DNA of 64,000 nucleotides. Origin: Treponemataceae bacterium (GTDB taxonomy: Bacteria; Spirochaetota; Spirochaetia; Treponematales; Rectinemataceae). The notes under the pieces are model-generated. The model was not told the origin of the DNA. It searched no databases and saw only the letters and a program-made list of their open reading frames with translations. Position 1 is the stretch's first letter. Every line of letters begins with the position of its first letter. The stretch is from assembly GCA_963678065.2 (NCBI GenBank), contig CAXXVZ010000003.1, positions 1,280,001 through 1,344,000 of the forward strand. The letters are read 5' to 3'. This document shows positions 2,844 through 24,892 of this stretch, piece after piece. A program made the translations under genes and the position numbers.

Positions 2844-3028
2844 GAAAGCTCCTCCGTATGCGGGGAATAGATTCGCGGCGTTTGCCGCGTTCTCTGCTAC
2901 CTACCTTACCCCCCATCCGCATATCCCAAAATAGGGTAAACATCGCATTCAGGGATAGGATATTTCACCTATGCGGTCGCGCAGATACACAGTGTACATG
3001 CATCACCCAGCGCACTATCCTCGTGCGT

Positions 3029-3820
3029 ATGAGCACTTCGAGTTGTGTATTCGATTTTCGGGACAGCACTGTCCTCGTCACAGGGGCGTCGGGAGGCCTC
3101 GGGGCGGGCATCTGCCGCGTCTTCGCCGAGGCGGGCGCGCGGCTCGCGATTCATTACCATTCGGGCCGCGAGCGCGCAGAGGCTCTGGCGGCCACCCTCC
3201 CCCACCCCGAACGCCACATTCTCGTATGCGCCGAGGCGGGGGATGAATCCTCGGTCGCGGCATGCATGGAGCGCGTGGCCGAGGCCCTTGAAAGCGATCA
3301 TCTCGACGTTCTCATCAACAACGCGGGGATCTATCCGGTCGCCCCCCTCGAGAAAATCACGGAAGCATCGTGGCGCGAGGTTCTCGACGCCAGCCTCACG
3401 GCGGCCCACCTTTTCACGCGGTCCGCCCTTCGACTCATGGGCAGCGGCTCATCGATCGTCAATGTGGCCTCGATCGAGGCCTACAGGCCCGCGGCGGGTC
3501 ACGCCCACTATGCCGCGGCTAAGGCCGCCCTTATCCAGTACACGAAATCGACGGCCCTCGAGCTCGGCCCCAAGGGCATACGGGCCAATTCCATATCGCC
3601 GGGGCTCGTGTGGCGCGAGGGCCTCGAGGAAGCGTGGCCCGAAGGCTACCGGCGCTACGTCCAGGTCGCTCCTCTCGGGAGGACTGCTTTGCCCGAGGAA
3701 GTCGGCGCGGCCTGCCTCTTCCTCGCTTCAGGCGCCGCCTCCTTCATCACGGGCGCAGACCTCGCGGTGGATGGAGGGACGAGCGTGGTGGCTGCGCAGG
3801 ATCTTTTCAGACCTGTCTGA
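3029..3820 (+). CDS. SDR family oxidoreductase (FabG-like)
   Basis: TGASGGLG, NNAG, YAAAK and IRANSISPG motifs; start chosen at ATG 3029. Confidence 0.9.
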   Translation: MSTSSCVFDFRDSTVLVTGASGGLGAGICRVFAEAGARLAIHYHSGRERAEALAATLPHPERHILVCAEAGDESSVAACMERVAEALESDHLDVLINNAGIYPVAPLEKITEASWREVLDASLTAAHLFTRSALRLMGSGSSIVNVASIEAYRPAAGHAHYAAAKAALIQYTKSTALELGPKGIRANSISPGLVWREGLEEAWPEGYRRYVQVAPLGRTALPEEVGAACLFLASGAASFITGADLAVDGGTSVVAAQDLFRPV

Positions 3821-3865: not shown

Positions 3866-5134
3866 TTATGCCCGCGCAAAGAGGAGGGCCGCGCGGCGGC
3901 GGGCCTCCCCGAGAACTTCCTCCTCTCCCTCGATCCGCCCCTTCCGCATGAGGACGGCGCCTGCGCAGATCGTGGTGTCCACCGACGCGCCCGATCCTGC
4001 GTACACGAGATTGGAGGCCAGGTCGTGGCAGGGCGTCATGGCGGCCCGCCTGAGGTCGATGAGGAGGATGTCGGCCGTCGCTCCTGCCTCGATCCTGCCG
4101 CCGCCTGTCTCAAAGAGCTCGTGACCCCTCGTCGAGGCAGCGTCGAGGATCTCGTTCACGGGCAGACGCCGGGAGTCCCGATAGTGCTGTTTCTGGAGCA
4201 GTCCCGCGATCTTCATGTCCGAAAAGAGATCCAGCGAGTTGTTCGAGGCCGCCCCGTCCGTGCCGAGGAGGACGCGGATGCCTCTCTTCCTCGCCGCCTC
4301 ATAGTCGAAGGCGGGCCCCGAGGCGAGCTTCATGTTGGAGACAGGGTTGTGGGCCACCGTGACTCCCCGCGCGGCGAGGATGTCGAAGTCCCTTTCGTCC
4401 AGCCACAGACAATGCGCGGCGATGGTCCTGGGCCCAAGGGCTCCGAGGGAGTCGAGGTAGGCCGCGGGCGACAGCCCCGTCCTCTTGCGGCACTCCCTGT
4501 CCTCCTCCTCGGTCTCGGCGAGGTGGAGCTGGAGGAAAAGTCCGCGCTCGCGGGAGAGTTCTCCGAGGAACCGGAGGCTCTCGCTCGCGGTCGCGTAGAC
4601 CGAGTGCGCGGCGAGGCAGAAGCGCGACAGAGACCCGCAGTCGGGCCGGGCGTCGAGGAAAGACAGGCAGGCAGCCCGCTGCTCAGCCGCCCTCCCCTCG
4701 TCGAGCCCATCGATGAGCGCGTAGGAGAGGATGAAGCGCATCCCCGAATCGCGGGCCGCGCGCGCCTGGGCCTCAGGGTAGATATACATATCGCAGCAGA
4801 CCGTCGTGCCGCTCTTCGCCATCTCGAGCGCGGCGAGGCGCATACCCCAGTAAACGTCTTCCTCCGTCATCCGGGCCTCGCGGGGCCATACGGCCTCCCG
4901 CAGCCAGGGCAAAAGTTCCATATCCTCGGCCACGCCGCGCAGAAGGGTCATGGCGGAATGGGCGTGGGCGTTCACGAGCGAAGGGATGGCCGCCATTCCC
5001 CGGGCGTCGATGACCTCGAGCCCCCCGGGCAGAGAGTCCTCTATCCGCGGCTCCAGGCGGGTTATGCGGTCGCCTTCTATGAGAATATCGGCCTCTGCGC
5101 CGCCGATGAGCGCGCTCCGTATCAGGATGCCCAT
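3866..5134 (-). CDS. mtaD: MTA/SAH/5'-deoxyadenosine deaminase-like amidohydrolase
   Basis: NAHAH, HLAET, AAHC, HNPVSNMKLASG and GTDGAASNN motifs; directly follows PNP. Confidence 0.75.
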   Translation of the reverse strand: MGILIRSALIGGAEADILIEGDRITRLEPRIEDSLPGGLEVIDARGMAAIPSLVNAHAHSAMTLLRGVAEDMELLPWLREAVWPREARMTEEDVYWGMRLAALEMAKSGTTVCCDMYIYPEAQARAARDSGMRFILSYALIDGLDEGRAAEQRAACLSFLDARPDCGSLSRFCLAAHSVYATASESLRFLGELSRERGLFLQLHLAETEEEDRECRKRTGLSPAAYLDSLGALGPRTIAAHCLWLDERDFDILAARGVTVAHNPVSNMKLASGPAFDYEAARKRGIRVLLGTDGAASNNSLDLFSDMKIAGLLQKQHYRDSRRLPVNEILDAASTRGHELFETGGGRIEAGATADILLIDLRRAAMTPCHDLASNLVYAGSGASVDTTICAGAVLMRKGRIEGEEEVLGEARRRAALLFARA

Positions 5135-5152
5135 GATTTCCCCTTTTTCCGC

Positions 5153-5971
5153 CTACGAGGCGAGTTCGATTATCCGGCGAATGAGGGCAGAGAACTCGGG
5201 ACGGCGACGCGCCGAAATCTCGAGGACTTCCTCGCTCGTGATGGGCTGATCGAGCATTCCGGCGCCCATGTTCGTGATGCACGATATGCCGAGCGTCCTG
5301 AGTCCGCAGTGGACGGCGGCGATGGCTTCGGGCACCGTCGACATGCCGACGGCGTCCGCGCCCAGGATGCGTGCCATCCTGATTTCGGCGGGCGTTTCGA
5401 AGCTGGGGCCGAGGAACCACGCGTAAACGCCCTCCCGCAGGCCGATTCCCAGCTCATCTCCCGCTCGCCGGGCCAGGGCGCGGAGCGCGGGATCGTAAAC
5501 GCGGGACATGTCGGGGAAGCGGGGCCCGAGACTGTCGTCGTTCGGTCCGACGAGGGGATTCCTGCCCGCGAGGTTGACGTGATCGCGTATGATCATGAAA
5601 TCCCCGGGAGCGTAGTCGGAATTCACTCCTCCCGCCGCGTTCGTCAGAACGAGACACTTTACGCCGAGGAGCCGGAAGGTCCGCACGGGGAAGGTCACGC
5701 GATCGAGGGGATGCCCTTCGTAGCAGTGGAATCGTCCCTGCATCAGGAGGATTGGTTTCCCGGCGAGGCGGCCTGCCACGAGGCGGCCGGCATGTCCGGG
5801 CGCAGTCGACGCGGGAAAGCCGGGTATCGACGTGTAGGGTATGACGACGGGAGACTCGACCTCGTCGGCGAGGCCCCCGAGACCGGAGCCGAGAACGAGG
5901 GCCATGTCCGGCACCTCGCGTATTCTGGAGCGGATATAGTCGGCCGCCACCTGAATTTCTTCCTGAGACAT
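5153..5971 (-). CDS. punA: Purine nucleoside phosphorylase (trimeric type, 6-oxopurine signature)
   Basis: VLGSGLG, PGHAG, QGRFHCYEG, TNAAGG, FETPAE, VGMSTVPE and ITN motifs; GGAGGG RBS before ATG 5971. Confidence 0.92.
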   Translation of the reverse strand: MSQEEIQVAADYIRSRIREVPDMALVLGSGLGGLADEVESPVVIPYTSIPGFPASTAPGHAGRLVAGRLAGKPILLMQGRFHCYEGHPLDRVTFPVRTFRLLGVKCLVLTNAAGGVNSDYAPGDFMIIRDHVNLAGRNPLVGPNDDSLGPRFPDMSRVYDPALRALARRAGDELGIGLREGVYAWFLGPSFETPAEIRMARILGADAVGMSTVPEAIAAVHCGLRTLGISCITNMGAGMLDQPITSEEVLEISARRRPEFSALIRRIIELAS

Positions 5972-5985
5972 GTTCCCTCCGCAGT

Positions 5986-6026
5986 AAAAGCCGCCCCAAA
6001 GGCTTTTTTTTAGTCTTTGGGGCGGC
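5986..6026 (-). terminator. Intrinsic terminator-like hairpin between the BMP gene and PNP
   Basis: GCCGCCCCAAAG...CTTTGGGGCGGC followed by TTTT on the minus strand. Confidence 0.6.
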
Positions 6027-6101
6027 GTGATTCGTGTCGCCCTGGGGCGCAGATCCGGGCGATGCCCAGCGCTGATGCCGCCGGACACCACCCGATGTGG
6101 G

Positions 6102-7133
6102 TCACTTCTTGATGCCGAGCTCGGCGAGAGTCGCGGGGACTTTCACTTTGCCGGAGGCGATGTCCGTTTTGGCCTTGGACACCGCGCTCTTCACGTCCGC
6201 CGGGACGATGCTGTCGTGCTGGTGGAAGGGAGCGATGTCGATCGCGCCTTCCGCGATGCCGAAGACGCGGTTCTGCCCGCCCTTGAGCTTCCCGTTGACG
6301 AGATCCTTGATCGCGAGATATGCCGACATGGTCGTACCTTTGAGGGCGGAGGTGAGAACGTAGGCCGGGGCCGCGGCGTTCTGATCGACGTCGGCGCCCA
6401 TCGCGAAGATCTTCCGCTCGCGGGCAGCGTCGATGACGCCCATGCCGGTGAGCCCGGCGATCTGGAGGACGATGTCCGCGCCCTGATCGATGAGGGCGAT
6501 CGTCGCTTCCTTGCCCTTGGCGGGGTCGCCGAAGGTGCCTGTCACGATGTAGCGCACATCGACGGTGGGATTGACCGATTTCGCGCCCGCGATAAAGCCG
6601 GCGAGGTAGCGCTCGACGGGGGGAATGTCCATGCCGAGCACGGCGCCGATCACGTTCTTGTCGTTGAGGAGGGGGGAATTCTTGTAGTATTTCTTCGTCA
6701 TGGAGCCCGCGACGATACCGGCAAGGTAGCCCGCCTCCTGCTCGCGCCAGCTGATACCGATGAGATTCGCGGGAATGTTGTCCCCGTAGGTGTGGTCGAT
6801 GCCGGCGTACATGGTCTGCGGATTGGCCTTGGCCGCTTCCTGGATCTGCTCCACCATGAGGAAACCTACACCGAACACCAGCTTGGCGCCGTCCTCGGCG
6901 AGGCCCGTGAGATTCGGGACATAGTCGGTCATGGCGTGGGCTTCGACGACCTTCACCTTCGCGAGGCCTTCGGCTTCGGCTTTCTTGAGACCGGCCCAGA
7001 CGCCATCGTTGAAGGAACCGTCGCCGAGGCCGTTGGCGTCGGTCGTCATAGCCACGAGTGGCTTGCCCTGGGCGCTTGCGGCTGTCGCGAAGACCGTGGC
7101 GATGATGAGCATCGCGATGAGAACTCTCTTCAT
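6102..7133 (-). CDS. BMP family (PnrA-like) nucleoside ABC substrate-binding protein
   Basis: Signal peptide; GLGDGSFN, EAGYLAG, GTFGDPAKGK, GADVDQ and LTSALK motifs. Confidence 0.9.
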   Translation of the reverse strand: MKRVLIAMLIIATVFATAASAQGKPLVAMTTDANGLGDGSFNDGVWAGLKKAEAEGLAKVKVVEAHAMTDYVPNLTGLAEDGAKLVFGVGFLMVEQIQEAAKANPQTMYAGIDHTYGDNIPANLIGISWREQEAGYLAGIVAGSMTKKYYKNSPLLNDKNVIGAVLGMDIPPVERYLAGFIAGAKSVNPTVDVRYIVTGTFGDPAKGKEATIALIDQGADIVLQIAGLTGMGVIDAARERKIFAMGADVDQNAAAPAYVLTSALKGTTMSAYLAIKDLVNGKLKGGQNRVFGIAEGAIDIAPFHQHDSIVPADVKSAVSKAKTDIASGKVKVPATLAELGIKK

Positions 7134-7209
7134 TCTATGCCTCCTTGAACACTAAAAAATTCCCCCGTGGGGGATCTTGGCCGGTCTCCTACGAGCCGGC
7201 GCTGTCGCC

Positions 7210-8169
7210 TCATTCGCCCTCTCCCTCGACAGTGAAGTCCTTCCCTACGGCGGCTGGCGGCCTGGATTTCCGGACGAGGCCGGCCACCGCGATTATCGTC
7301 ATGACGTAGGGGAAAACCAGGAATATCTCGGAGGGAAGTTTCAGGATTCCGATGCTCTGAGCGCGCAGCTGGAGCGCGTCGACGAAACCGAAGAACAGCG
7401 AAGCGAGGAATGCGCCCACAGGGCGCCAGCCTCCGGCGATGTTGGCGGCGAGAGCTATGAAACCGCGGCCGTCCGTCATGCCTTCGGTGAAGGAATTCGA
7501 GTTTTCTATCGAGAGGAAGGCGCCGGCGATGCCACACAGAAGGCCGGAGAAGGCGAGAGCCACGTAGCGCACGCGCACGACGGAACGGCCGAGTGTTTCG
7601 AGCGCCATGGGATGCTCGCCTGAGGCCTCCATGGAGAGGCCGAGGCGGGTCCTCTTGAATATCCAATACCAGACGAAGACAGAGAGCAGCGCGATGTACA
7701 CGATGGGTGTCTGGTTGAAAAACGCGGGCCCGATGAAAGGTATGTCCGAGAGCAAGGGGATGGCGAATTTAAAATCATGGAGGGTGCGCGCGACCGCGTT
7801 CGAGGTGCCTTGCCGCCCGAAGACTACCATCATGAGGTAGCGCGTGAGGCCGAAGGCGAGAATGTTCATGATGGCGCCGGCGACAACGTGGTTTATGTGA
7901 AGGGAGATGGCGGCCCAGGCGAAGAACAGGGAGAAGAGAAGACCTGCGGCCATGCCGGCCGCGAGACCGATCCAGGGGTTGCCCGTCGCCCAGCCCGCCC
8001 AGGCGGCGAAGAAGGCGCCGACGAGCATGACACCCTCCATGGCGATATTCGTGATCCCGCTTCTCTCGCAGATCACGGCTGCGAGGGCGGCGAGGGTCAC
8101 CGGCGTCGCCAGCCGCACCGTGGCCTCGAGGAGTTGGGGCGTAAAAAGAGCGATCAAGAGTCCTGTCAT
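7210..8169 (-). CDS. Nucleoside ABC transporter permease (NupC-like)
   Basis: ERSGITNIAMEG, GEHP and GRGFIALAA motifs; the real start is ATG 8169, overlapping the upstream stop. Confidence 0.9.
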   Translation of the reverse strand: MTGLLIALFTPQLLEATVRLATPVTLAALAAVICERSGITNIAMEGVMLVGAFFAAWAGWATGNPWIGLAAGMAAGLLFSLFFAWAAISLHINHVVAGAIMNILAFGLTRYLMMVVFGRQGTSNAVARTLHDFKFAIPLLSDIPFIGPAFFNQTPIVYIALLSVFVWYWIFKRTRLGLSMEASGEHPMALETLGRSVVRVRYVALAFSGLLCGIAGAFLSIENSNSFTEGMTDGRGFIALAANIAGGWRPVGAFLASLFFGFVDALQLRAQSIGILKLPSEIFLVFPYVMTIIAVAGLVRKSRPPAAVGKDFTVEGEGE

Positions 8170-9392
8170 GCCTTGGCTCCTTTCCGGCCGCGGAAGAGGC
8201 GTTCGTAGATCGTCTCGGCGAGCATGAGAAAGAGGATGGTGCCTTTGACAATCTCTATGATCGCGTTGGGCGTCTGAACCGTCCTCGCCATGTATTGGCC
8301 GCCCGAATCGAGAACGCCCCAGAGCAGCGCGGTGAAAATGATGGCTATGGGATCGTTCCTCGCGAGCAGCGCGATGGAAATGCCGTTCCAGCCGTAGCCG
8401 GCGTTGAGGTTCTGGAACATGCGGTGATCGAGACCGAGCACCTGTGTCACTCCCGAAAGCGCCGCGAGCGACCCCGATATGAGGAGGCTCGCCGCGGTTA
8501 TCCACGGAACAAAGATGCCCTGGGTGCGCGCGGCTGCGGGGTTGGCGCCCACCGCGCGCACCTTGAAGCCCAGGTCCGTCTTCTCGAGGATGAAGCGTAC
8601 GAGAAAGCAGGTGGCGATGGCGATGAGGATGCCGATGTGGAGGCGGTAGTTGGCGTTGGGGAGAAAATCCTTGAAAAGGGGGAGGAAAAAGGTCTCCCTG
8701 ATGGGGTCCGTCGTGTAGGGATGGGTGGTGAGAGCAGGATCGCCGCCGTTCGCCCTGATGAACATCGACGAGAGGGTGCGTGTGGCGTAGGCGAACATCA
8801 TCGTCGTGATCACTTCGTGCGCGCCCGTCTTGACCTTGAGTATCGCGGGGATGGCGTTGAGGGCCGCGCCGAAAAGGGCGCCCGCGACGAAGACGAGGGG
8901 TATGGCGACAAGGGGCGGCAGGTTGAGGTTGAGACCGAGCCAGGTCGCGACCATGACGCCAATGTAGTATTGCCCCTCGGCGCCGATGTTGAAGAGGCCT
9001 CCCTTGAACGCGAAGGCGATCGCGAGGCCGGTGAAGATGAGCGGCGTCGCGTTGAGGATGGCGATGTGCCAGTTTTTTACGAGGCCGCCGTAGAAGAGAG
9101 CCTTGTAGGACGCGATGGGGTCGAAGCCCGTGAAGGCCATGATGGCGGCGCCGATGATGAGGGCCGAGCATATGCCAGCGACGGGGATCGCCGCGCGGAC
9201 GAGGATGCGGCGCGCCGCGCGCCCGGTCTCGACCGCTCCGAGGGCGGCAAACCTTTCGATGCATACCAGAATCAGAGCAGCCGCGATGAGCCACAGCCCC
9301 CGGAAATACGAGGCCAGGTACAGAATCGCCCCCGCGACACCGAGGAGCGCCGCGAAAACACCCAGCAGCCGTCTGGGAAGTGGCATTTTCAC
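8166..9392 (-). CDS. Nucleoside ABC transporter permease (NupB-like)
   Basis: GLFNIGAEGQ, EVITT and GYGWNGI motifs. Confidence 0.9.
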   Translation of the reverse strand: MKMPLPRRLLGVFAALLGVAGAILYLASYFRGLWLIAAALILVCIERFAALGAVETGRAARRILVRAAIPVAGICSALIIGAAIMAFTGFDPIASYKALFYGGLVKNWHIAILNATPLIFTGLAIAFAFKGGLFNIGAEGQYYIGVMVATWLGLNLNLPPLVAIPLVFVAGALFGAALNAIPAILKVKTGAHEVITTMMFAYATRTLSSMFIRANGGDPALTTHPYTTDPIRETFFLPLFKDFLPNANYRLHIGILIAIATCFLVRFILEKTDLGFKVRAVGANPAAARTQGIFVPWITAASLLISGSLAALSGVTQVLGLDHRMFQNLNAGYGWNGISIALLARNDPIAIIFTALLWGVLDSGGQYMARTVQTPNAIIEIVKGTILFLMLAETIYERLFRGRKGAKA

Positions 9393-10933
9393 GATGCGCT
9401 CCTTTCCGCCTTGCCGCGTATCATGTACTCGCCGACTTCCACTACGCTCGTGCGGGAGATGGCGCTCTCGAAGACGATCTCGCCTCCGTGGAGGACTGCG
9501 ACGCGGTCGGAGAGGGTGAAGATTTCCTCGAGTTCCATAGAGACGAGCAGAATGGCCGCGTTCCGCTCTTTGAGTTCGAGTATGCGTCGGTAGACGTACT
9601 CGATGGCTCCGACGTCGAGGCCCCGCGTCGGCTGAGATATGAGGAGGAAGGCGGGATCGCGCGAGAACTCCCGCGCGAGGATGACTTTCTGCTGATTCCC
9701 GCCCGAAAGCGTCGACGCGTGGGCCTCCGGTCCGGCCGCCCTGATGTCGTAGCCCTCCATGAGCCGCCCGGCCTGGGCCCGCATGGCCACAAAATCGAGA
9801 AAACCGCCGCGGCAGAGCGGCGGACGGTCGCTCCGTCCGAGCGCGAGGTTCTCCTCCACCGAGAAGGACAGGACGAGCCCTGAACCGCGGCGGTCCTGGG
9901 GCACATAACCCATGCCTTCGTCCATACGCCGCCTGACATCCCAGCGGGAAACATCCCTGCCCTTGAAAAGGACGCGCCCCGAATCAGGCGCCCGCAGACC
10001 GACGAGGGCCTCGCAGAGCTCGCTCTGGCCGTTGCCTTCGACGCCAGCGATGCCCAGTATCTCTCCGGGGCCGACGCCGAGGCTCGCCGCCTTGAGTGCG
10101 GAAAGGCCGCGGGAATTCCTCACGGAGAGCCTTTCGACGCGCAGGATCGGCTCCGGCGTCGGCTTGGCCGCGGGCCGCTCGACATCCAGGACGACCTCCC
10201 GGCCCACCATGAGCTTCGCGAGCTCGGCTGAGCTCGCCTCCGCCGTGCGGCGCTCGCCCTTCAGCTCGCCCTTGCGCAGAATGTAGACCCGCCCGGAAAG
10301 GTGCCGGACTTCCTCGAGTTTGTGCGTGATGATTATGATCGAGGTCCCATCCGCGGCGAGGCGCCGGAGGACGGCGAACAGCTCTTCCACCTCGCGCGGC
10401 GTGAGAACCGCCGTCGGCTCGTCGAGTATGAGAACCCGCGCCGAGCGGTAGAGCGCCTTGAGTATCTCGACGCGCTGCTGGAGTCCCACGGAAAGATCCT
10501 CGAGGCGGGCGTCGGGGTCCACGGCGAGGCCGTAGCGGTCGGAGAGCTCGACGACTCTCTGTCTGGCCCTCTTGTAGAGTACATGTCCGAGGCGGACAGG
10601 CTCGTCGCCGAGAATTATGTTCTGGGTGACGCTGAGCGTGGGGACGAGCATGAAATGCTGGTGCACCATGCCCAGCCCCCTGGATATGGCGTCCCGGGGC
10701 GAGGAGAAGCTCACGGGCTTTCCGTCGAGCAGTATCTCGCCGGAAGTCGGCTTGTAGAGGCCGAAGAGTATGTTCATGAGCGTGGTCTTGCCCGCGCCGT
10801 TCTCGCCGAGGAAGGCGATGATCTCTCCAGGGTAGAGTTTCACGGATATGTCGCGGTTCGCGACCACCCTCGAGAATGCTTTCGTGATATTGCGTGTCTC
10901 AAGGACAGGCGATATCCCTGCCTGCGTCCTCAT
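9389..10933 (-). CDS. Nucleoside ABC transporter ATP-binding protein (two NBDs)
   Basis: GENGAGKT, MVHQHFMLV, LDEPT, LSGGNQQK and QPTRGLDVGA motifs. Confidence 0.93.
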   Translation of the reverse strand: MRTQAGISPVLETRNITKAFSRVVANRDISVKLYPGEIIAFLGENGAGKTTLMNILFGLYKPTSGEILLDGKPVSFSSPRDAISRGLGMVHQHFMLVPTLSVTQNIILGDEPVRLGHVLYKRARQRVVELSDRYGLAVDPDARLEDLSVGLQQRVEILKALYRSARVLILDEPTAVLTPREVEELFAVLRRLAADGTSIIIITHKLEEVRHLSGRVYILRKGELKGERRTAEASSAELAKLMVGREVVLDVERPAAKPTPEPILRVERLSVRNSRGLSALKAASLGVGPGEILGIAGVEGNGQSELCEALVGLRAPDSGRVLFKGRDVSRWDVRRRMDEGMGYVPQDRRGSGLVLSFSVEENLALGRSDRPPLCRGGFLDFVAMRAQAGRLMEGYDIRAAGPEAHASTLSGGNQQKVILAREFSRDPAFLLISQPTRGLDVGAIEYVYRRILELKERNAAILLVSMELEEIFTLSDRVAVLHGGEIVFESAISRTSVVEVGEYMIRGKAERSAS

Positions 10934-10936
10934 CCC

Positions 10937-11998
10937 TCAGCTCCCGGCCAGCGTCGAGAGGGCGGGGCCGAAGGGCGGATAGGCTACGCCGCGTTCGGTG
11001 ACGATGGCGGTTATGAGGTCGGCGTCAGTGACGTCGAAGGCGGGGTTGCAGACCTTCACGCCAGCAGGAGCCATGCGCCGCGCATACCATTTTTCGGTGA
11101 CTTCCTCGGCCGGCCTCTGTTCGATGCGGATATTTTCGCCCGAAGCGCAGCCGAAGTCGATCGTCGAAAAGGGCGCGTGGATGTAAAAAGGAATCCCGTA
11201 GTGCCGCGCGAGGATAGCCACCCCCGAGGTGCCTATCTTGTTCGCGGCGTCCCCGTTCGCGGCCACGCGGTCGCAGCCGACGAGAACTGCCTGGACGAGG
11301 CCGCTCTTCATGACGATCGAGGCCATGTTGTCGCAGATGAGCGTCACGTCGATTCCCGCCTGCATGAGCTCCCAGGCAGTCAGGCGCGCGCCTTGGAGGA
11401 GGGGGCGCGTCTCGTCGGCGTAGACCTTGAAGCCGTAACCCCGCTCGGCGCCGAGGTATATCGGGGCGAGGGCCGTACCATAGCGCGCGGTCGCGATCGC
11501 CCCCGCGTTGCAGTGCGTGAGGAGCCCCCATCCTCTTCCAAGGAGGGTGAGCGAGTTTTCGCCTATTCGTCGGCAGGTCTCTTCGTCGTCGTCCCTGATC
11601 GCCTCGGCCTCGAGCATCAAGGCTTTCTTCGCTGCGTCCGGGCTCTCGCCCTCCAGGCAAAGAAGTTTCGCCTCCATCCTGTCGAGAGCCCAGAAGAGGT
11701 TGACCGCCGTCGGCCGCGAAGAGGCGAGGTAGGCCTTGGCCGCGCGGAACTCCGCGAGGAGAGAGGCGAAGTCGCCCGCGGGAAAGTCGCGGACAGCGAG
11801 ATAGACGCCGTATGCCGCGGCTATGCCTATGGCGGGTGCGCCCCTCACTTTCAGTTCGTATATGGCCTCCCATATTTCCCTCTGGGTCTTGAGCCTGAGG
11901 AACGCGACTTCGTTCGGCAGGAGGGTCTGGTCGAGGATCACGAGAGATCCGTCGTCATCGTCGAGCCTCACCGGCTCCGGGCCTTTGATTTCACTCAT
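10937..11998 (-). CDS. mtnA: S-methyl-5-thioribose-1-phosphate isomerase
   Basis: VRGAPAIG, RPTAVNL, THCNAG, ETRPLLQGARLT, GCDRVAANGDAANKIGT and NPAFDVT motifs. Confidence 0.93.
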   Translation of the reverse strand: MSEIKGPEPVRLDDDDGSLVILDQTLLPNEVAFLRLKTQREIWEAIYELKVRGAPAIGIAAAYGVYLAVRDFPAGDFASLLAEFRAAKAYLASSRPTAVNLFWALDRMEAKLLCLEGESPDAAKKALMLEAEAIRDDDEETCRRIGENSLTLLGRGWGLLTHCNAGAIATARYGTALAPIYLGAERGYGFKVYADETRPLLQGARLTAWELMQAGIDVTLICDNMASIVMKSGLVQAVLVGCDRVAANGDAANKIGTSGVAILARHYGIPFYIHAPFSTIDFGCASGENIRIEQRPAEEVTEKWYARRMAPAGVKVCNPAFDVTDADLITAIVTERGVAYPPFGPALSTLAGS

Positions 11999-12978
11999 CG
12001 CGCGTACCTCTCATTCGTGCCGCCAGCCAGCGGCCCTTCTTTTTCATCCGGCACCCCGAGCAGAGCCTCCGCGGTCGGGCGATCGGTGACCAGACCGTTG
12101 ATCACGCCGCCGCGCAGGGCGCCGAGAATGGTGGCCAGCTTCCCCGGCCCGAAGGCCATGGCGATCACGTGCGGCAATCGCCGTATACTCTCCCACTCGA
12201 GGGAGACCGTCCGGTCGGCGAAGGACATGGGCACATACCTTCCCGCAGCGTCGTAATACCGCATGAGGATGTCGCCCACAGCTCCCTTCGCATTGAGCTC
12301 CTCGAGCTGTTCGGCGCCGATGTAGCCCGTCTTCATGATACTCGAATCCCGGGTGACGCCGCCAAGCCCGACGAAGGCCAGATCGACTTTCGCCGCGTTT
12401 TCGAGCGCCCTTCCTATGGCGGGTTCCTTGATCATCATCTCCTTGACCCGCCCGCTCCGCACGAGGACGGGCATGGGGATGCTCTCGATCGGCACGCCCA
12501 GCTTCTCCGCGAGTGGAGATGATAAGCCATACGGGGTGCTGGGCTCCAGGTAGGTCCCCGCCAACTCATTGATGCGGGAGGGAAGCGAGGCCGGGCGTCT
12601 CACAAAGGGAAGCATCGCGCTCACCGTGGTGCTCCAGGCCACTCCGATCCTGCAACCCGGCGTTATGAGACGCCCAAGAAGCTCGGCGCCCCCCATGCCC
12701 ACGGCTTCCCTGCTCTCCTCCAACGTAGCGCCAGTGGAGACGACGATCGCGGTCTTGAGCCCATAGCGCTGCTCAAGCCGGAGGCCGAGCGCGAAGAGTT
12801 CCGGAAGCGGTTTCTTGACCGTTATCTGTACAAGTCCCTCCTCGCGGGCCCTCTTGAGCATCCTCGTCACGGCGACGCGGGAGAGTCCCATCTTCGCGGC
12901 GACCTCCTCCTGGCTTAAGCCCTCGATGTAATACAGATTCGCGATCACCGTGAGAGCCTCATCCGCGTATCCGCCCAT
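11995..12978 (-). CDS. SorC/DeoR/LsrR family sugar-binding transcriptional regulator
   Basis: N-terminal LYYIEGLSQEEVA..MGLSR.AV.RML..ARE.GLV HTH; GAVGDI sugar-binding domain. Confidence 0.9.
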   Translation of the reverse strand: MGGYADEALTVIANLYYIEGLSQEEVAAKMGLSRVAVTRMLKRAREEGLVQITVKKPLPELFALGLRLEQRYGLKTAIVVSTGATLEESREAVGMGGAELLGRLITPGCRIGVAWSTTVSAMLPFVRRPASLPSRINELAGTYLEPSTPYGLSSPLAEKLGVPIESIPMPVLVRSGRVKEMMIKEPAIGRALENAAKVDLAFVGLGGVTRDSSIMKTGYIGAEQLEELNAKGAVGDILMRYYDAAGRYVPMSFADRTVSLEWESIRRLPHVIAMAFGPGKLATILGALRGGVINGLVTDRPTAEALLGVPDEKEGPLAGGTNERYAR

Positions 12979-12989
12979 TCCGCCACCTC

Positions 12990-14135
12990 TCACAAAGATT
13001 CGAGCAAAGCGAGGAAATGCCTGGCGTTTTCCGCGAGGTCCGCGCTCCGGCGATGGAGTCCGCCACCGATAAGGAGGATGAAGTCCTTTCCGTAGACATC
13101 GAGCATCTCCCTGGCGCGGTCTGTCGTCATGCCCCCGCCCGGCGCGGGGAAAATGGGCTTGATATCTCCCATCGCCTCTCGTGAGGCCCGGGCGATGCCG
13201 AGGCACTCCTCGCGGGTGAAGGCGAAACGCCCGCCGAAATTCGGATACACAGTGGCGTCGGCTCCCGCAAGCCGCATGAGGCCGCCGTAGAGCGCGGCGT
13301 GGCTGAAGCCGCTCTCCGGGGAAGTCACGAACGAGCCTCCGAACGAGGGGTGCGCCATGATGGGCAGCCCGACTGAGTCGTCGTCGGCGATGAGGCGCAT
13401 CGCGTCGAAACCGACGAGGGCCGGGCAAATAAGGAGAGCCCCCGCCCCGAGTTCTCTGGCCCGCCGCGCAGAGGGCAGGAGCCTGTCCGCCCTCGCGGTG
13501 ATGTTGGGCATGTAGACGCTTCTCCGTCCGGTCTCGCGGTTCGCCCTCTCCACAGCCTCGACGCAGCGCGCGACCCTCTCCTCGAAGGGACAGAAGACCT
13601 GGTCGGCGATGCCGTGGTCGTCCTTGATGAGGTCGATGCCCCCGAGGGCGAATCGGTATGCCTGGTCGGCCAGCTCCGCGGGGGACAAGCCCATGGGCTT
13701 GAGCGCGGTGCACAGGAGGGGGCGGGAGTCCTGGCCGAGGAGGGCCCGAAGGCCGGACCGGCCGAAGCGGGGTCCGCGGAACCGGCGGAGGATGGATTCG
13801 GGGAGCGTCATACGCTCGACCTTGATGCCCGGCTTTATGCTGATGTTCCCGTAGACAACATTGAGAAGCTGAACGAGGTCCGGCCCGGCGACCTCCGCGG
13901 CGAAGCTGATCCTCGCGCGGTAAAGGCCCGGTCGGGAAGGCTCGAGGAGCTCGACCTTCCCGACTATTCCGTCTCTGATGGGGCCCTCCGGCACGAGATC
14001 CGCCGGAAACTCGACCGTCTGCTCCAGACAGATATCCTCCGCTTTGGCCCGGGCCTCGGCCTCGTCGCCTGCAAGGAGATAGGTGACGGCGAAGCGCTCC
14101 CCCCCGAGAATTCCGGACAGATGATCGCCCGCCAT
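12990..14135 (-). CDS. RuBisCO-like protein (form IV, KDDH type like the R. rubrum MTRu-1-P isomerase)
   Basis: EQTVE, GPRFG..GLR, ALKPMGLS, DLIKDDHG, MAHPS and PAPGGG motifs; start ATG 14135 overlaps the upstream stop. Confidence 0.9.
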   Translation of the reverse strand: MAGDHLSGILGGERFAVTYLLAGDEAEARAKAEDICLEQTVEFPADLVPEGPIRDGIVGKVELLEPSRPGLYRARISFAAEVAGPDLVQLLNVVYGNISIKPGIKVERMTLPESILRRFRGPRFGRSGLRALLGQDSRPLLCTALKPMGLSPAELADQAYRFALGGIDLIKDDHGIADQVFCPFEERVARCVEAVERANRETGRRSVYMPNITARADRLLPSARRARELGAGALLICPALVGFDAMRLIADDDSVGLPIMAHPSFGGSFVTSPESGFSHAALYGGLMRLAGADATVYPNFGGRFAFTREECLGIARASREAMGDIKPIFPAPGGGMTTDRAREMLDVYGKDFILLIGGGLHRRSADLAENARHFLALLESL

Positions 14136-15142
14136 CAGAGGGCCTCGGCTTTGGCCGCGCTGTGGACCGCCTCGATGCGCTGGGCCGCGAGTTCCGAATC
14201 GTCGATGCCGAAGCTCATGCCGGTCAGACTCTCGACCTTCGAGACGAGAGCCGAGGCGTCGAGTCCGTATTCTCTCATCAAATACCCCTTGGAGCCGCCG
14301 TGGGCGAAGCTGTCCTGTAGGCCCATGCGGATAAGGCGCTTTCCGATGCCCTTTTCCGCGATAATCTCGGCCACTTCGGCGCCGAGACCGCCTATGACGC
14401 TGTGATTCTCCATTGTAATGACACCGTAGCGCGGCTTGCACAGAGCCTCCTCGAGGGCCGCGTCGCCGGAGGGCTTGTGCGTCGACACATGGAGGTGCTG
14501 GATCGAGAGGCCCCTTCTGCGCAGCGAGGCGGTGGCGCGCATCGCCTCCTCGGTGGAAATACCCGCCGTGACGATGCTGATGTCGGAGCCGACGGACAGA
14601 ACCCGCGACTTTCCCGCGACGAAGGGCTCTTCCCGGGGGAAGAGCCGGGGGAGCTCGCCGCGCAGCATGCGGATGTAGACCGGCCCTTGCGCATCGAGAA
14701 CGGGATCGAGGACGGTCTCGACCTCGGTGGCGTCTCCCACCTCGAAGACTGTCATGTTCGGAACCGCGCGCATGACGGCGATGTCCTCGATAGCCTGATG
14801 GGTCGCCCCCCCGGGAGTGGTTATCCCTGGAAGAAAGCCGAAAAACTTGACGGGCAGATTGGAATAGGCCACCGAGCTCACGATCTGATTGAGCGCCTGC
14901 CGGTAGATGAAAACCGCGAATGTGTGGATGAGCGGTATGAAGCCCTCGCGGGCGAGCCCCGCCGCGAAACTCACCATGTTCTGCTCGGCGATGCCCATGG
15001 AGAAAAAACGCTCCGGATAGGCTTCCTTGAACTCGGCTATCTCGGTGGAGCCCGTCAAGTCCGCGGAGAGCACGACGACGCGCGGCTTGTCCGCGGCCCA
15101 CGAGACGAGATTCCGCGCGTGCACCTTGCTGAGGATTTCCAC
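14135..15142 (-). CDS. Transketolase-like protein, C-terminal (pyrimidine-binding) subunit
   Basis: ADLTGST, MGIAEQNM, GGATHQAIED, GPVYIRM and ENHSVIGGLG motifs. Confidence 0.9.
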   Translation of the reverse strand: MEILSKVHARNLVSWAADKPRVVVLSADLTGSTEIAEFKEAYPERFFSMGIAEQNMVSFAAGLAREGFIPLIHTFAVFIYRQALNQIVSSVAYSNLPVKFFGFLPGITTPGGATHQAIEDIAVMRAVPNMTVFEVGDATEVETVLDPVLDAQGPVYIRMLRGELPRLFPREEPFVAGKSRVLSVGSDISIVTAGISTEEAMRATASLRRRGLSIQHLHVSTHKPSGDAALEEALCKPRYGVITMENHSVIGGLGAEVAEIIAEKGIGKRLIRMGLQDSFAHGGSKGYLMREYGLDASALVSKVESLTGMSFGIDDSELAAQRIEAVHSAAKAEAL

Positions 15143-15145
15143 GGT

Positions 15146-16093
15146 CTACTCCTTTTCCGCGCGGCGCTTCATCTCCGCCTCGTAAAACTTCGCATACTCC
15201 TTTCGCTCCCCGGACGAGGCGAAACGAAGGTAATGGAACTTGGGCCGGCGCGCGTCGAGGATGCCAAGGCCCCGACATGGGTCCGTGCGGCAGAGGACGA
15301 AGGTGGGCCTGCCATCGGGCTTTCGGCCGCAGGCGGCGTCGATGGCGAAGGGATCGTGCCCGTCCACGACAGAGGCGTGCGCGCCGAAGGATTCGATTCG
15401 CGCATCGAGGGGCTCGATCCCCATGACGTCCTTCATCTCGCCGTCGCACTGCTGACCGTTCACGTCGACGCAGACGATCATGTTGTCGAGTTTATAGAAG
15501 GACATCGTCTGAATGGCCTCCCATGTCTGCCCCTCCTGGAATTCGCCGTCGGAGAGGAAAACGACTACCCTACCCCTCTCGCGCTTCAGTTTTTTGGCGA
15601 GGGCTATCCCCGCAGCCTGGCTCAAGGTCTGCGCGAGAGCCCCGCCCATCATCTCGAAACCGGGAGAATGCTCGGCGCCTATCATCTCGACCGTGCTGCC
15701 GTCTTTATTGAACTGGGCGAGTCCCTCGGGAGCCATCCTGCCCGTCTCAACGAGGGTGGCGTAGAGAACGAGGGCGTAGTGGGCCGGACTCAGGAAGAAG
15801 CGGTCATCGTCCGCCTTTCCGGGGCCATTGTAGCCCGCACCTGAGAGGGACCGGCCGCGTCCCTTGCCTGGCACAGCGCTGAAAGGCGACGGAACCAGGG
15901 GAGCGATGCTTGGCCCCAGGCGCATGACCTTCAGATAGAGAGTGGAAAGGATCTCCGCCGCGGAGCAAGCCTGGCTCATGTAGCCACCGTCGTTGGCGAG
16001 CGTGTGCTCCAGCACTCGCAGCCTGATTCCGCGCGCGGCGCGCGAGACATCGTCGATCCATCCGCTGGAGGGCGCGCCCCCGGGAACTGCCAT
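15146..16093 (-). CDS. Transketolase-like protein, N-terminal ThDP-binding subunit
   Basis: DRFFLSPAH, SDGEFQEGQTWEA...DVNGQQ (ThDP motif) and VDGHD. Confidence 0.88.
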   Translation of the reverse strand: MAVPGGAPSSGWIDDVSRAARGIRLRVLEHTLANDGGYMSQACSAAEILSTLYLKVMRLGPSIAPLVPSPFSAVPGKGRGRSLSGAGYNGPGKADDDRFFLSPAHYALVLYATLVETGRMAPEGLAQFNKDGSTVEMIGAEHSPGFEMMGGALAQTLSQAAGIALAKKLKRERGRVVVFLSDGEFQEGQTWEAIQTMSFYKLDNMIVCVDVNGQQCDGEMKDVMGIEPLDARIESFGAHASVVDGHDPFAIDAACGRKPDGRPTFVLCRTDPCRGLGILDARRPKFHYLRFASSGERKEYAKFYEAEMKRRAEKE

Positions 16094-16173
16094 GAATAGC
16101 CTCCGACCTCGGGGACCGCCTTAAAAATCAAGCGTTTTTCATCGGTCCGCCGGCTGAAGAATATGCTTACTGG

Positions 16174-16202
16174 ACTATATGACGGGATCGAAAATCTGTC
16201 AA
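16174..16202 (-). promoter_or_regulatory. Sigma70-type promoter of the transketolase-RLP-mtnA operon
   Basis: TTGACA-17 nt-TATAGT on the minus strand. Confidence 0.75.
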
Positions 16203-16214
16203 ATTGTTTATCAC

Positions 16215-16228
16215 GGAACTTTTGTTCA
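16215..16228. promoter_or_regulatory. Putative SorC/DeoR operator
   Basis: GGAACTTTTGTTCA, a near match to TGAAC-N4-GTTCA, just upstream of the -35. Confidence 0.55.
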
Positions 16229-16879
16229 GTTCAGTCCGAGCACGATCCCGCAGACCGCCTCCACGGAGCAGCCCCACGCGATTATGCCGCCCCGATGTCC
16301 GGCCATACAGATCGCGCCCTCTTCGGGGCGGCCGTTCTCGACGAATATGCGCCGTATCTCCCCGGCCATGGCAGGCGTCCCGTACGCGACATTTTCGCGC
16401 GTGCGCCTTTGCGCGTCCGGCCAGCCCGACCAGAGAGCTTCGCTGTGCACATGCAGGACAGCGAGGATTTCCGTCGACAACTCATAGAACGCTGCGTGCG
16501 TCAGACTCTCCGAAGAAGCCCGGCAAAGGCCGGCGCAATCCAGTCGGTTCCCCCGGATATCCCAGTCGGAGACATATGAATACGCTTCGGGCCCCGGATC
16601 GATCAAATGCCCTGTCTGGCTCCCCGTGATCAGGAAACCCTCGTGATCCGGCCCATCGGCCTCCCCGCAGCCCGGTATGCACATCCGCTTGCTGAGATTC
16701 CCGTAACCGATGCCGTCCGGCCCGATGCCGATGAGCCCGCGACTCCACATCGCCCTGCGGACGGGGCGCAACTCCGCTATCATCTCTTCGGAGACGCATT
16801 CCTGCCTTCTCCAGACACACTCGAACTTGATGACCCCTTCGTTCGCGTTCCTCGCGGGGTCAGCGTAATCGGGCATCAT
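16226..16879 (-). CDS. Class II aldolase/adducin family protein
   Basis: GYGNLS, FLITGS, ASSESLTH, VLHVHS and GHRGG metal-binding pattern; start uncertain (16879 or 16876). Confidence 0.8.
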   Translation of the reverse strand: MMPDYADPARNANEGVIKFECVWRRQECVSEEMIAELRPVRRAMWSRGLIGIGPDGIGYGNLSKRMCIPGCGEADGPDHEGFLITGSQTGHLIDPGPEAYSYVSDWDIRGNRLDCAGLCRASSESLTHAAFYELSTEILAVLHVHSEALWSGWPDAQRRTRENVAYGTPAMAGEIRRIFVENGRPEEGAICMAGHRGGIIAWGCSVEAVCGIVLGLN

Positions 16880-16901: not shown

Positions 16902-17007
16902 TTTGACAACATTAGAACACCATTTCATGATAACGGTCAATCCAGGGAAAAACACGATGGGCGATACTCTCGTCGTCCCACACACTATCCCCGGAAACGG
17001 AGGATTC

Positions 17008-22401: not shown

Positions 22402-22403
22402 GA

Positions 22404-23378: not shown

Positions 23379-23379
23379 G

Positions 23380-24891: not shown

Positions 24892-24892
24892 C

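Follow-up and report, generated by a model that had tools for sequence, protein, structure and literature searches.

What does a RuBisCO-like protein (RLP) do when the gene upstream of it encodes one half of a transketolase, and not the cupin with which RLPs of the same kind are reported to work? This question is raised by a cluster of genes on the minus strand of a 64,000-nucleotide stretch of the genome of a Treponemataceae bacterium (assembly GCA_963678065.2, contig CAXXVZ010000003.1, positions 1,280,001 to 1,344,000; hereafter, the window, with positions counted from its first letter). The cluster joins an RLP and a split, thiamine diphosphate (ThDP)-dependent enzyme of the transketolase superfamily (subunits TktN and TktC) to a SorC/DeoR-type regulator, the isomerase MtnA, a BMP-type ABC importer, a purine nucleoside phosphorylase (PNP), an MtaD-like deaminase and, at its head, a divergent member of the class II aldolase family.

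The substrates at issue, 5'-methylthioadenosine (MTA) as well as 5'-deoxyadenosine, arise in every cell that employs S-adenosylmethionine (SAM), and each of them is an inhibitor of the enzymes from which it comes; to our knowledge, the recovery of their sulfur and carbon in anaerobes that lack O2-dependent methionine salvage is only partly known. We conclude that the RLP-transketolase partnership is genuine and conserved and that it represents a form of the RLP-dependent salvage of SAM by-products that has apparently gone undescribed; this window adds to it a likely entry at the level of nucleosides and the aldolase-family gene. In the reading that we favor, with a probability of about 60%, the cluster takes up 5'-modified adenosines, which the deaminase, PNP and MtnA would convert to 5-methylthio- or 5-deoxyribulose-1-phosphate, and these compounds would then leave by two exits, one through the RLP and the ThDP enzyme, the other through the aldolase-family protein.

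An RLP of the Rhodospirillum rubrum and Rhodopseudomonas palustris type

The RLP of the window is the sole RuBisCO-family gene of the genome. It contains the catalytic domain of the RuBisCO large subunit (PF00016, 98 bits against a cut-off of 30), and among solved structures it is closest to the R. palustris RLP 3qfw (E 8e-83, 281.8 bits), which outscores the MtnW enolases (about 188 bits), the Photo-type proteins of C. tepidum and R. palustris RLP2 (about 145-152 bits) and the OiaX model (84). By these scores it stands nearer to the R. palustris/R. rubrum RLP1 type than to RLPs of the YkrW, Photo or apiose types. Judging by its length and by the naming of 2qyg as RLP2, 3qfw would be RLP1. In the alignment to 3qfw, the residues required for carboxylation are replaced just as a previous, sequence-only reading of the window had claimed, with KPM for KPK, KDDH for KDDE and HP for HR, and these replacements are invariant or nearly so among 20 relatives of the RLP.

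RLPs of the R. rubrum and R. palustris type are reported to convert 5-methylthioribulose-1-phosphate to 1-methylthio-xylulose-5-phosphate, the substrate of the cupin methylsulfurylase that acts next (PMC5893883, PMC6302742). We accordingly predict, from sequence relationships, that the window protein is a 1,3-isomerase of 5-methylthioribulose-1-phosphate and of 5-deoxyribulose-1-phosphate. The alternative of an unrelated RLP clade, which had been named as a possible refutation, is not borne out, given that 3qfw outscores both the MtnW and the Photo-type proteins and that cupin-linked RLPs nest among the transketolase-linked ones, as described below.

The RLP and the transketolase-like enzyme travel together

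Evidence that the two halves of the transketolase belong with the RLP comes from other genomes. One genome per species was scanned, and 80 loci with RLP relatives (48-70% identity) were recovered; their neighbors were scored by tblastn with the window proteins, and the loci were classed from the tblastn coordinates, except that three (L014, L022 and L045), where the TktC match overlaps the RLP start, were placed in the transketolase group by hand. TktC lies upstream of the RLP on the same strand in 54 of the 80 loci, in 49 of them together with TktN, and three of the five loci without TktN end at a contig edge. A cupin occupies the same upstream position in three loci; in 15, whose upstream sequence reaches 2.1 kb or more, there is neither a transketolase nor a cupin, and in the remaining eight the upstream flank is too short to judge. 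Judged by record titles and labels of origin, the TktC-linked loci span at least 12 phyla: Spirochaetota, Chloroflexota, Bacillota, Pseudomonadota, Myxococcota, Planctomycetota, Calditrichota, Verrucomicrobiota, Deinococcota, Elusimicrobiota, Methylomirabilota and candidate division FCPU426.

The one RLP-adjacent cupin that was compared, that of L018, matches R. rubrum Rru_A2000 (3jzv; E 1e-16), and the three RLPs with a cupin neighbor branch from within the transketolase-linked ones in a maximum-likelihood tree (a quick IQ-TREE search, from which only the placement of the window and of the three cupin-linked proteins is used). RLPs of one kind are thus accompanied either by a cupin or by the ThDP enzyme, and the earlier observation that a ThDP enzyme sits in the cupin position extends well beyond this genome. 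In the same tree, the window RLP is sister to that of another Treponemataceae metagenome-assembled genome (L030, support 96), in which the order TktN-TktC-RLP-SorC-MtnA is likewise found.

A second test did not start from the RLP. Among 400 other genomes sampled from the phylum of the window, 11 encode an RLP orthologue (45-61% identity) and 12 encode an RLP-type TktN (50-60% identity); both are present in 11, the RLP never occurs alone, and the single solitary TktN lies on a short contig. Twelve further genomes with only distant RuBisCO-family matches contain no RLP-type TktN. The three genes are contiguous, in the order TktN-TktC-RLP, in 9/9 loci fetched from the phylum. Neither the RLP nor the RLP-type TktN was found in any of the 56 sampled genomes of the order to which the window belongs, so that the trio is patchily spread, and this scatter, over separate families and at least 12 phyla, suggests horizontal transfer of a three-gene module.

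The genes around the trio point to its substrate. Within 10 kb of the RLP, MtnA is encoded in 15 of the 80 loci; nearby genes also include MtnK in 12 (a representative reaches 426 bits on TIGR01767, cut-off 275), the ribose-type binding protein of a sugar ABC importer (Peripla_BP_4) in 11, a SorC homologue beside the RLP in seven, pyridoxal phosphate (PLP)-dependent enzymes of cysteine and methionine metabolism in four and a canonical class II aldolase in three. A gene of the LsrF family occurs near the trio in six loci (L011, L013, L026, L027, L034 and L041), and the one member scanned (L041:12297-13166) is an LsrF equivalog, that is, a 3-hydroxy-5-phosphonooxypentane-2,4-dione thiolase (377 bits, cut-off 297). 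Taken at the level of gene context, the MtnA, MtnK and Cys/Met PLP neighbors appear to tie the trio to the sugars of SAM by-products. Two recurrent open reading frame (ORF) families without a Pfam match (families 17 and 43) were set aside, because they are not genes but ORFs in alternative frames over TktC and TktN.

The larger block that the sequence-only reading expected to be conserved, RLP-tkt-mtnA-PNP-mtaD, holds up only in part: the transketolase-RLP core is kept (54 of 80 loci, and 11 of 11 genomes in the co-occurrence test), and the rest is not, with MtnA in the 15 loci mentioned above and the PNP-deaminase pair in one. The nine spirochaete trio loci contain no MtnA, PNP, deaminase, BMP or MtnK gene in the 8-10 kb on either side. 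Only rarely, as in the window, is the trio embedded in the rest of a pathway.

An altered donor site in the transketolase-like enzyme

To characterize the ThDP enzyme, 47 RLP-linked TktN and 55 TktC sequences were aligned with the 12 canonical transketolases of the genome, with residues numbered as in the yeast enzyme and anchored by alignments to a split transketolase (6yak/6yaj) and to human transketolase. Like canonical transketolases and the split enzyme of Carboxydothermus hydrogenoformans (6yak/6yaj), the window enzyme consists of a PP and a Pyr/C module, here on two subunits, and retains the catalytic residues. The Asp and Asn of the ThDP motif (SDG...N) are invariant in all 47 TktN, the catalytic Glu418 is present in all 54 ungapped TktC, and His263, His481, Arg528 and the serine of the ADLxxS motif, aligned to yeast Ser386, are kept; the best solved relative of TktC is 6yaj (E 1e-62). 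The family is nevertheless set apart from its paralogues by profile scores: on PF00456, TktN scores about 70-72 bits vs 140-193 bits for the other 11 split paralogues (140-440 bits for the canonical transketolases of the genome as a whole, one full-length and 11 split), and on the best curated equivalog, NF004559, TktN and TktC score 154 and 218 bits, far below the cut-off of 488, and they likewise fall well short on all the other curated transketolase models. The set of 11 canonical split pairs plus one full-length enzyme is itself unusually large for one genome.

The differences are concentrated where a transketolase holds its substrate. Unlike canonical and split transketolases, RLP-linked TktN have SDG for the GDG motif (46/47), Tyr for His30 (45/45) and Ile for His103 (47/47), with a new invariant His four residues further on; His69 is kept in 38 of the 47 and replaced by Gln in eight. 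TktC has Leu for His469 and Gly for Asp477, both in 55/55 and the latter with a one-residue deletion, as well as Ser or Thr for Arg359, followed by Arg or Lys at the next position. Compared with the solved split and human enzymes, TktN carries an insertion of about 28 residues (residues 62-91; about 15821-15910 in the window), and Cys43 and Cys216 hardly vary across the family. Residues 30, 69, 103, 263, 386, 469, 477, 481 and 528 of the yeast enzyme are all reported to serve in substrate or phosphate recognition (PMC3352088). Both the active-site histidine cluster (at His30 and His103) and the acceptor and phosphate contacts (at His469, Asp477 and Arg359) of a transketolase are thus broken in this family, whereas all 12 canonical paralogues of the genome keep His30, His69 and His103.

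There is a precedent for the direction of this change. Replacement of transketolase His102 by Leu is reported to aid the binding of a hydrophobic, non-hydroxylated alkyl donor, pyruvate in place of hydroxypyruvate, and an engineered Geobacillus transketolase with H102L/L118I/H474S accepts pyruvate (PMC11997939). The window family resembles that enzyme in having an aliphatic residue at the His103 equivalent, which favors a hydrophobic donor end without a hydroxyl group, and differs from it in being natural and in keeping His481, the equivalent of His474 there. In view of the donor-site changes and of this precedent, the RLP-linked family looks built, as far as the alignment can tell, for a ketose donor without a C1 hydroxyl, a description that fits both 1-methylthio-xylulose-5-phosphate and 1-deoxy-xylulose-5-phosphate (DXP).

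This donor site bears on a more conventional interpretation of the cluster, namely, that it handles the pentose of ordinary nucleosides, with PNP releasing ribose-1-phosphate from imported adenosine, inosine or guanosine, and MtnA and the RLP converting this, via ribulose-1-phosphate, to xylulose-5-phosphate, which the transketolase would pass to the pentose phosphate pathway. Xylulose-5-phosphate is, indeed, the classical transketolase donor, but the two histidines that surround the C1 end of the donor in canonical transketolases are replaced throughout the RLP-linked family, and canonical transketolases, one full-length and 11 split, are already present in the genome. Elsewhere, moreover, the trio travels with MtnK (in the 12 loci above) and not with nucleoside genes. 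We consider the catabolism of ordinary nucleosides improbable as the function of the cluster.

The conserved machinery of transfer raises another alternative, carboligation, in which the ThDP enzyme would move the methylthio- or deoxy-C2 unit onto an aldose and so make a 1-modified ketose as a bioactive or signaling sugar. His263, His481 and Glu418 would serve such a reaction, and a Synechococcus transketolase is reported to act in the salvage of 5'-deoxyadenosine by converting 5-deoxyribose to 7-deoxysedoheptulose (PMC8102628). The acceptor-binding Asp477 is lost in all 55 TktC, however, the neighbors are importers, kinases, isomerases and repressors of the catabolic type, and tailoring or export genes do not recur around the trio, all of which leaves carboligation with little credence.

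A likely entry at the level of nucleosides

The genome (5.27 Mb in five contigs, 99.94% complete) narrows the ways in which MtnA can be supplied. MtnA is encoded once, in the cluster; in profile searches of the genome, no MtnP/MTAP and no MtnN scores above its cut-off, and MtnK and MtnD/ARD were not found either. The deaminase and PNP are, therefore, the only evident feed for MtnA, and together with it they form the likely entry for MTA and 5'-deoxyadenosine, as far as can be told from gene content. The absence of a cupin, mtnK and mtnD, noted earlier for the window, extends to the whole genome: the RLP-adjacent cupin of L018, used as a tblastn query, has no match at E 1e-5, and there is no cupin in the window.

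The family assignments of the entry proteins are compatible with this role. The BMP protein has 7x0r and Treponema pallidum TmpC (2fqw) as solved relatives. PNP, besides the model given in Table 1, exceeds the cut-off of NF006054 (387 vs 218 bits); on the MTAP model TIGR01694 it scores 75.6 bits, below the cut-off of 274.85, but is the sole match of the genome to that model, on the methylthioinosine phosphorylase model NF006599 it scores 63 bits, and its own sequence finds no other tblastn match in the genome. The solved relatives nearest to the deaminase are 4dyk/4gbd, 4f0r, named as an MTA/S-adenosylhomocysteine deaminase, and Tm0936 (1p1m); it scores 264 on the NCBIfam 5'-deoxyadenosine deaminase model against a cut-off of 522, and no equivalog cut-off is reached. 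Among NCBIfam models, the SorC regulator comes closest to Bacillus DeoR and LsrR, without reaching the cut-off of either.

Routes to MTA catabolism that begin with a deaminase reportedly exist in Pseudomonas aeruginosa, with an MTA deaminase and a methylthioinosine phosphorylase, and in Methanocaldococcus, with DadD. The window shares with them the combination of a predicted, MtaD/DadD-like deaminase with a phosphorylase of the 6-oxopurine-specific type, and differs in that this phosphorylase belongs to the PNPH family (TIGR01700) and is not an MTAP-derived methylthioinosine phosphorylase. Genes for BMP/PnrA proteins and PNPH-type phosphorylases serve purine nucleosides in general, as the catabolism of ordinary nucleosides would require; yet a second BMP/deaminase pair lies elsewhere in the genome. 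There, on the contig that also holds the window (G000:C3:2056039-2062170), a second BMP-family gene (34% identity) is close to a second MtaD-like deaminase gene (34% identity), and this pair may be a general nucleoside uptake set.

An aldolase-family protein as a probable second exit

The sequence-only reading, which foresaw a single exit through the RLP and the ThDP enzyme, is supported only in part, one of the reasons being that it missed the gene at the head of the cluster. That gene encodes a protein of 217 amino acids from an ATG at 16879, preceded by GGAGGG (an ATG at 16912 would give 228 amino acids), without a PDB match by sequence. Its predicted model (pLDDT 88.3) finds, in Foldseek, FucA, AraD, RhuA and the Bacillus thuringiensis structure 6btd, at TM 0.5-0.63, so that the class II aldolase fold is confirmed at the level of the model. 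Homologues occur in 14 of the 400 phylum genomes, and the SSE, HxH and GH motifs are invariant among these 14. In six of the 14 loci the gene directly adjoins MtnA, in two of these together with a PNP/MTAP-family gene; the neighbors of the other eight are unrelated.

In the reported dihydroxyacetone phosphate (DHAP) shunt, MtnP, or MtnN and MtnK, together with MtnA, feed the class II aldolase Ald2, and DrdK/DrdI/DrdA form a version for 5-deoxyribose (PMC5893883, PMC6079011, PMC10986504). As in that shunt, MtnA and a protein of class II aldolase fold are encoded in one cluster here, and DrdA (6btd) is among the structural matches; unlike Ald2 and DrdA, the window protein is far from all curated subfamilies. 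Judging from the model and from the MtnA linkage, the protein is likely an aldolase of the DHAP-shunt type, predicted to act on the product of MtnA, and would open a further exit, of a kind already known. Both this shunt and the RLP-dependent one are reported to operate in R. rubrum and R. palustris (PMC5893883). The homologues of the window protein also match, weakly, the NCBIfam model of ribulose-1-phosphate aldolase, a class II aldolase family; in the catabolism of ordinary nucleosides, the protein would split ribulose-1-phosphate, as in the haloarchaeal route.

The proposed pathway

The pathway that we propose begins with the BMP-type ABC system, which would import MTA and 5'-deoxyadenosine. 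The MtaD-like deaminase would make the corresponding inosine analogues, PNP would release hypoxanthine and a sugar-1-phosphate, and MtnA would isomerize the latter to the ribulose-1-phosphate. At the first exit, the aldolase-family protein would yield DHAP and either 2-(methylthio)acetaldehyde or acetaldehyde, as do Ald2 and DrdA. At the second, the RLP would produce 1-methylthio-xylulose-5-phosphate, or DXP from the deoxy sugar, as in its R. rubrum and R. palustris relatives; the transketolase-like enzyme would then add ThDP to C2 and cleave the C2-C3 bond, releasing glyceraldehyde-3-phosphate and retaining a ThDP-bound C2 unit. This unit might lose methanethiol to become an acetyl unit, leave as an aldehyde or be transferred. 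The SorC regulator would sense one of the sugar phosphates.

The closest known system is the MTA-isoprenoid shunt of R. rubrum and R. palustris, reported to consist of MtnP, MtnA, an RLP of the DeepYkr clade and the cupin 1-methylthio-xylulose-5-phosphate methylsulfurylase (PMC5893883, PMC6302742). Both combine MtnA with a subsequent RLP, and the solved structure nearest to the window RLP is the R. palustris protein 3qfw. In the window cluster, by contrast, a deaminase and a 6-oxopurine PNP take the place of MtnP, and the transketolase-like enzyme takes that of the cupin, which the genome lacks. The cupin reaction uses glutathione, whereas neither GshA (PF04262) nor GshB (PF02955) was found in the genome of the window; this is a single data point, consistent with a cupin-free solution. 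In the literature searched, we found no description of a link between an RLP and a transketolase in the metabolism of MTA or 5'-deoxyadenosine, in agreement with the earlier remark that the pathway was not recognizable as described; older genome-context figures or supplements might mention one. Neither "ketolase" nor "thiamine" occurs in a review of methionine salvage from 2018 (PMC6302742).

Which of the two RLP products is the main substrate of the ThDP enzyme? The methylthio sugar is favored, because the enzyme and a cupin acting on this very compound replace each other from locus to locus and because DXP is useful without any further enzyme. A phosphoketolase performs a ThDP-dependent cleavage of xylulose-5-phosphate to glyceraldehyde-3-phosphate in which the C1 substituent is lost from the enamine to give acetyl-ThDP. 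Tentatively, and with less confidence than in the pathway as a whole, we suggest that the RLP-linked enzyme is a ThDP-dependent carbon-sulfur lyase of the same type, which would split 1-methylthio-xylulose-5-phosphate into glyceraldehyde-3-phosphate and an enamine that expels methanethiol to leave acetyl-ThDP, subsequently released as acetate, acetyl-phosphate or acetyl-CoA. Phosphoketolase would be a mechanistic analogue only, the leaving group being methanethiolate here and not hydroxide. Methanethiol, if released, would be usable, because the genome encodes two O-acetylhomoserine sulfhydrylases, along with dxs.

A carbon-sulfur lyase of this kind would allow the sulfur of MTA and all five sugar carbons to be recovered independently of O2 and glutathione, with methanethiol becoming methionine via O-acetylhomoserine sulfhydrylase, and would replace the cupin methylsulfurylase across many, mostly anaerobic phyla, being fed here by imported nucleosides. 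Conceivably, methanethiol could instead be eliminated from the enediol of 1-methylthio-xylulose-5-phosphate to give phosphorylated 4,5-dihydroxy-2,3-pentanedione, a substrate of LsrG and LsrF. This idea is prompted by the LsrF neighbors and the LsrR-like regulator, and it may link both routes.

A less probable alternative to the two-exit pathway, although one to be taken more seriously than the catabolism of ordinary nucleosides or carboligation, is that the trio serves only the deoxy branch, that is, the carbon catabolism of 5'-deoxyadenosine or 5-deoxyribose, with the methylthio sugar a side substrate at most. The RLP would make DXP, and a DXP synthase-like step run in reverse would yield glyceraldehyde-3-phosphate and hydroxyethyl-ThDP, the C2 unit being freed as acetaldehyde or passed on. 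The replacement of His103 by Ile resembles the engineered change that admits a methyl-ketone donor (PMC11997939), MtnK-family kinases and MtnA are reported to serve 5-deoxyribose too (PMC6079011), and the cluster in the window has no sulfur gene. TktC also scores about equally on the dxs and transketolase models, but the canonical split TktC paralogues score alike on the dxs model, and a special kinship of TktC with DXP synthase was, therefore, rejected. DXP, furthermore, needs no additional enzyme, with dxs present and a methylerythritol phosphate route presumed; the ThDP enzyme holds the exact place of a cupin that acts on the methylthio compound (PMC5893883); and Cys/Met PLP genes flank the trio in four loci.

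If the two-exit pathway holds, the ThDP partner of the RLP in at least 12 phyla would represent a new activity in the transketolase superfamily and a new branch of SAM by-product salvage, and would provide a function for many RLPs now annotated as "RuBisCO large subunit". The window is a useful test case, because here the trio is joined to MtnA, a regulator and the importer/deaminase/phosphorylase set; in the absence of a competing MtnP, MtnK, MtnD or cupin from the genome, the pathway could be reconstituted from one operon.

What weighs against the two-exit pathway

Several observations weigh against the two-exit pathway. The pair of PNP and deaminase is found near the trio in only one of the 80 loci (L022) and in none of the nine spirochaete loci, and because these genes are not conserved with the trio, their link to it rests on one operon-like arrangement. 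That arrangement is itself broken up by gaps of 76 and 130 nucleotides with hairpins. The module could also serve ordinary purine nucleosides, since this PNP is the only one of its type in the genome and the family of the deaminase accepts adenosine as well. MTA, in turn, may enter otherwise, given that the genome has, at another place, a divergent ORF of the nucleosidase family. As for the trio, 15 of the 72 loci with enough flank have neither a transketolase nor a cupin by the RLP; their surroundings are heterogeneous, with no repeated partner. His469 and Asp477 vary from pair to pair among the canonical split paralogues of the genome, so that only the changes at His30 and His103 are diagnostic. 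The aldolase-family protein approaches the cut-off of no NCBIfam subfamily (best, 20 bits) and could instead be a dehydratase, an epimerase or a decarboxylase; its gene, moreover, has a transcription context of its own, with a promoter-like site downstream of it.

Some of these points would also suit a chance juxtaposition of two or three unrelated units without a common pathway: the aldolase-family gene, the block from the transketolase through RLP, SorC and MtnA to the ABC genes, and the PNP-deaminase pair. The gaps of 132, 76 and 130 nucleotides, with their promoter-like site and hairpins, would fit this reading, and PNP and the deaminase are almost never near the trio elsewhere. Against this stand the 12 genes on one strand with no opposing gene between any of them, the position of MtnA inside the tightly coupled core, the lack of any other feeder for the single MtnA of the genome (no MTAP above cut-off and no MtnK), and the recurrence of the PNP and deaminase association in L022. 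A chance juxtaposition appears very unlikely, the least probable of the explanations considered here, and the two-exit pathway remains the reading that we prefer.

Layout of the cluster

The 12 co-oriented genes run on the minus strand from 16879 (or 16912) down to 3866, as delimited by ORF, start, Pfam and NCBIfam calls (Table 1). All the genes named in the sequence-only reading are present in the order stated and on that strand; the first gene within its range, though, is the aldolase-family gene and not a transketolase subunit. The tight coupling that had been claimed holds from TktN through permease 2, where the junctions measure -4 to +11 nucleotides, and fails at three wider junctions, before TktN (132 nucleotides), before the BMP gene (76) and before PNP (130).

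Table 1. Genes and candidate regulatory features of the cluster, in window coordinates
Feature	Position	Strand	Evidence or remark
Class II aldolase-family gene, divergent	16226-16879	-	Pfam Aldolase_II, 31 bits
TktN, N-terminal (PP-domain) subunit of transketolase-like ThDP enzyme	15146-16093	-	PF00456
TktC, C-terminal (Pyr + C domain) subunit of the same ThDP enzyme	14135-15142	-	PF02779, PF02780
RLP, R. rubrum/R. palustris RLP1 type	12990-14135	-	PF00016, 3qfw
SorC/DeoR-type regulator, sugar-phosphate-binding	11995-12978	-	PF04198, 194 bits
MtnA, 5-methylthioribose-1-phosphate isomerase	10937-11998	-	TIGR00512, 419 bits (cut-off 279)
ABC transporter ATPase, two ABC domains	9389-10933	-	PF00005, two stretches
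ABC permease 1	8166-9392	-	PF02653
ABC permease 2	7210-8169	-	PF02653
BMP/PnrA-like substrate-binding lipoprotein, predicted nucleoside receptor	6102-7133	-	PF02608, 197 bits
PNP, trimeric 6-oxopurine (inosine/guanosine) type	5153-5971	-	TIGR01700, 341 bits (cut-off 293)
MtaD/DadD-like TRZ/ATZ amidohydrolase, predicted MTA/5'-deoxyadenosine deaminase	3866-5134	-	PF01979
Promoter-like site TTGACA-17-TATAGT	16174-16202	-	in the 132-nucleotide gap 5' of TktN; 11/12 matches
Imperfect palindrome, candidate operator	16180-16201		overlaps the promoter-like site in the gap 5' of TktN
Short GC hairpin with T-run, terminator-like	7161-7174	- (coding strand)	between permease 2 and BMP genes
12-bp GC-rich stem-loop followed by TTTT	5984-6026	-	between BMP and PNP genes

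The promoter-like sites are weak evidence on their own, two having been found against 1.8 expected in shuffled sequence; another such site (16903-16931) lies near a plus-strand ORF of 462 amino acids (16903-18291) that diverges from the cluster and has no Pfam family at E 0.001. The stem-loop between the BMP and PNP genes was read on the coding strand, the scan having listed part of it on the plus strand. With the terminator-like hairpin, it flanks the BMP gene within an otherwise compact transporter operon, and the two structures may set a separate level of BMP expression or curb read-through toward the genes for PNP and the deaminase.

At the other end, a short-chain dehydrogenase/reductase gene (2858-3820) was considered as a pathway member and rejected, since it has only generic similarity within that family (33% to one locus) and is convergent with the cluster. 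Beyond the divergent ORF lies a separate minus-strand set for sugar utilization (20111-24975), with an FGGY kinase (20111-21619), an ABC permease (22404-23441) and an ABC ATPase (23380-24975); this set does not adjoin the cluster, and each of its genes clusters with genes near RLPs in a few other loci.

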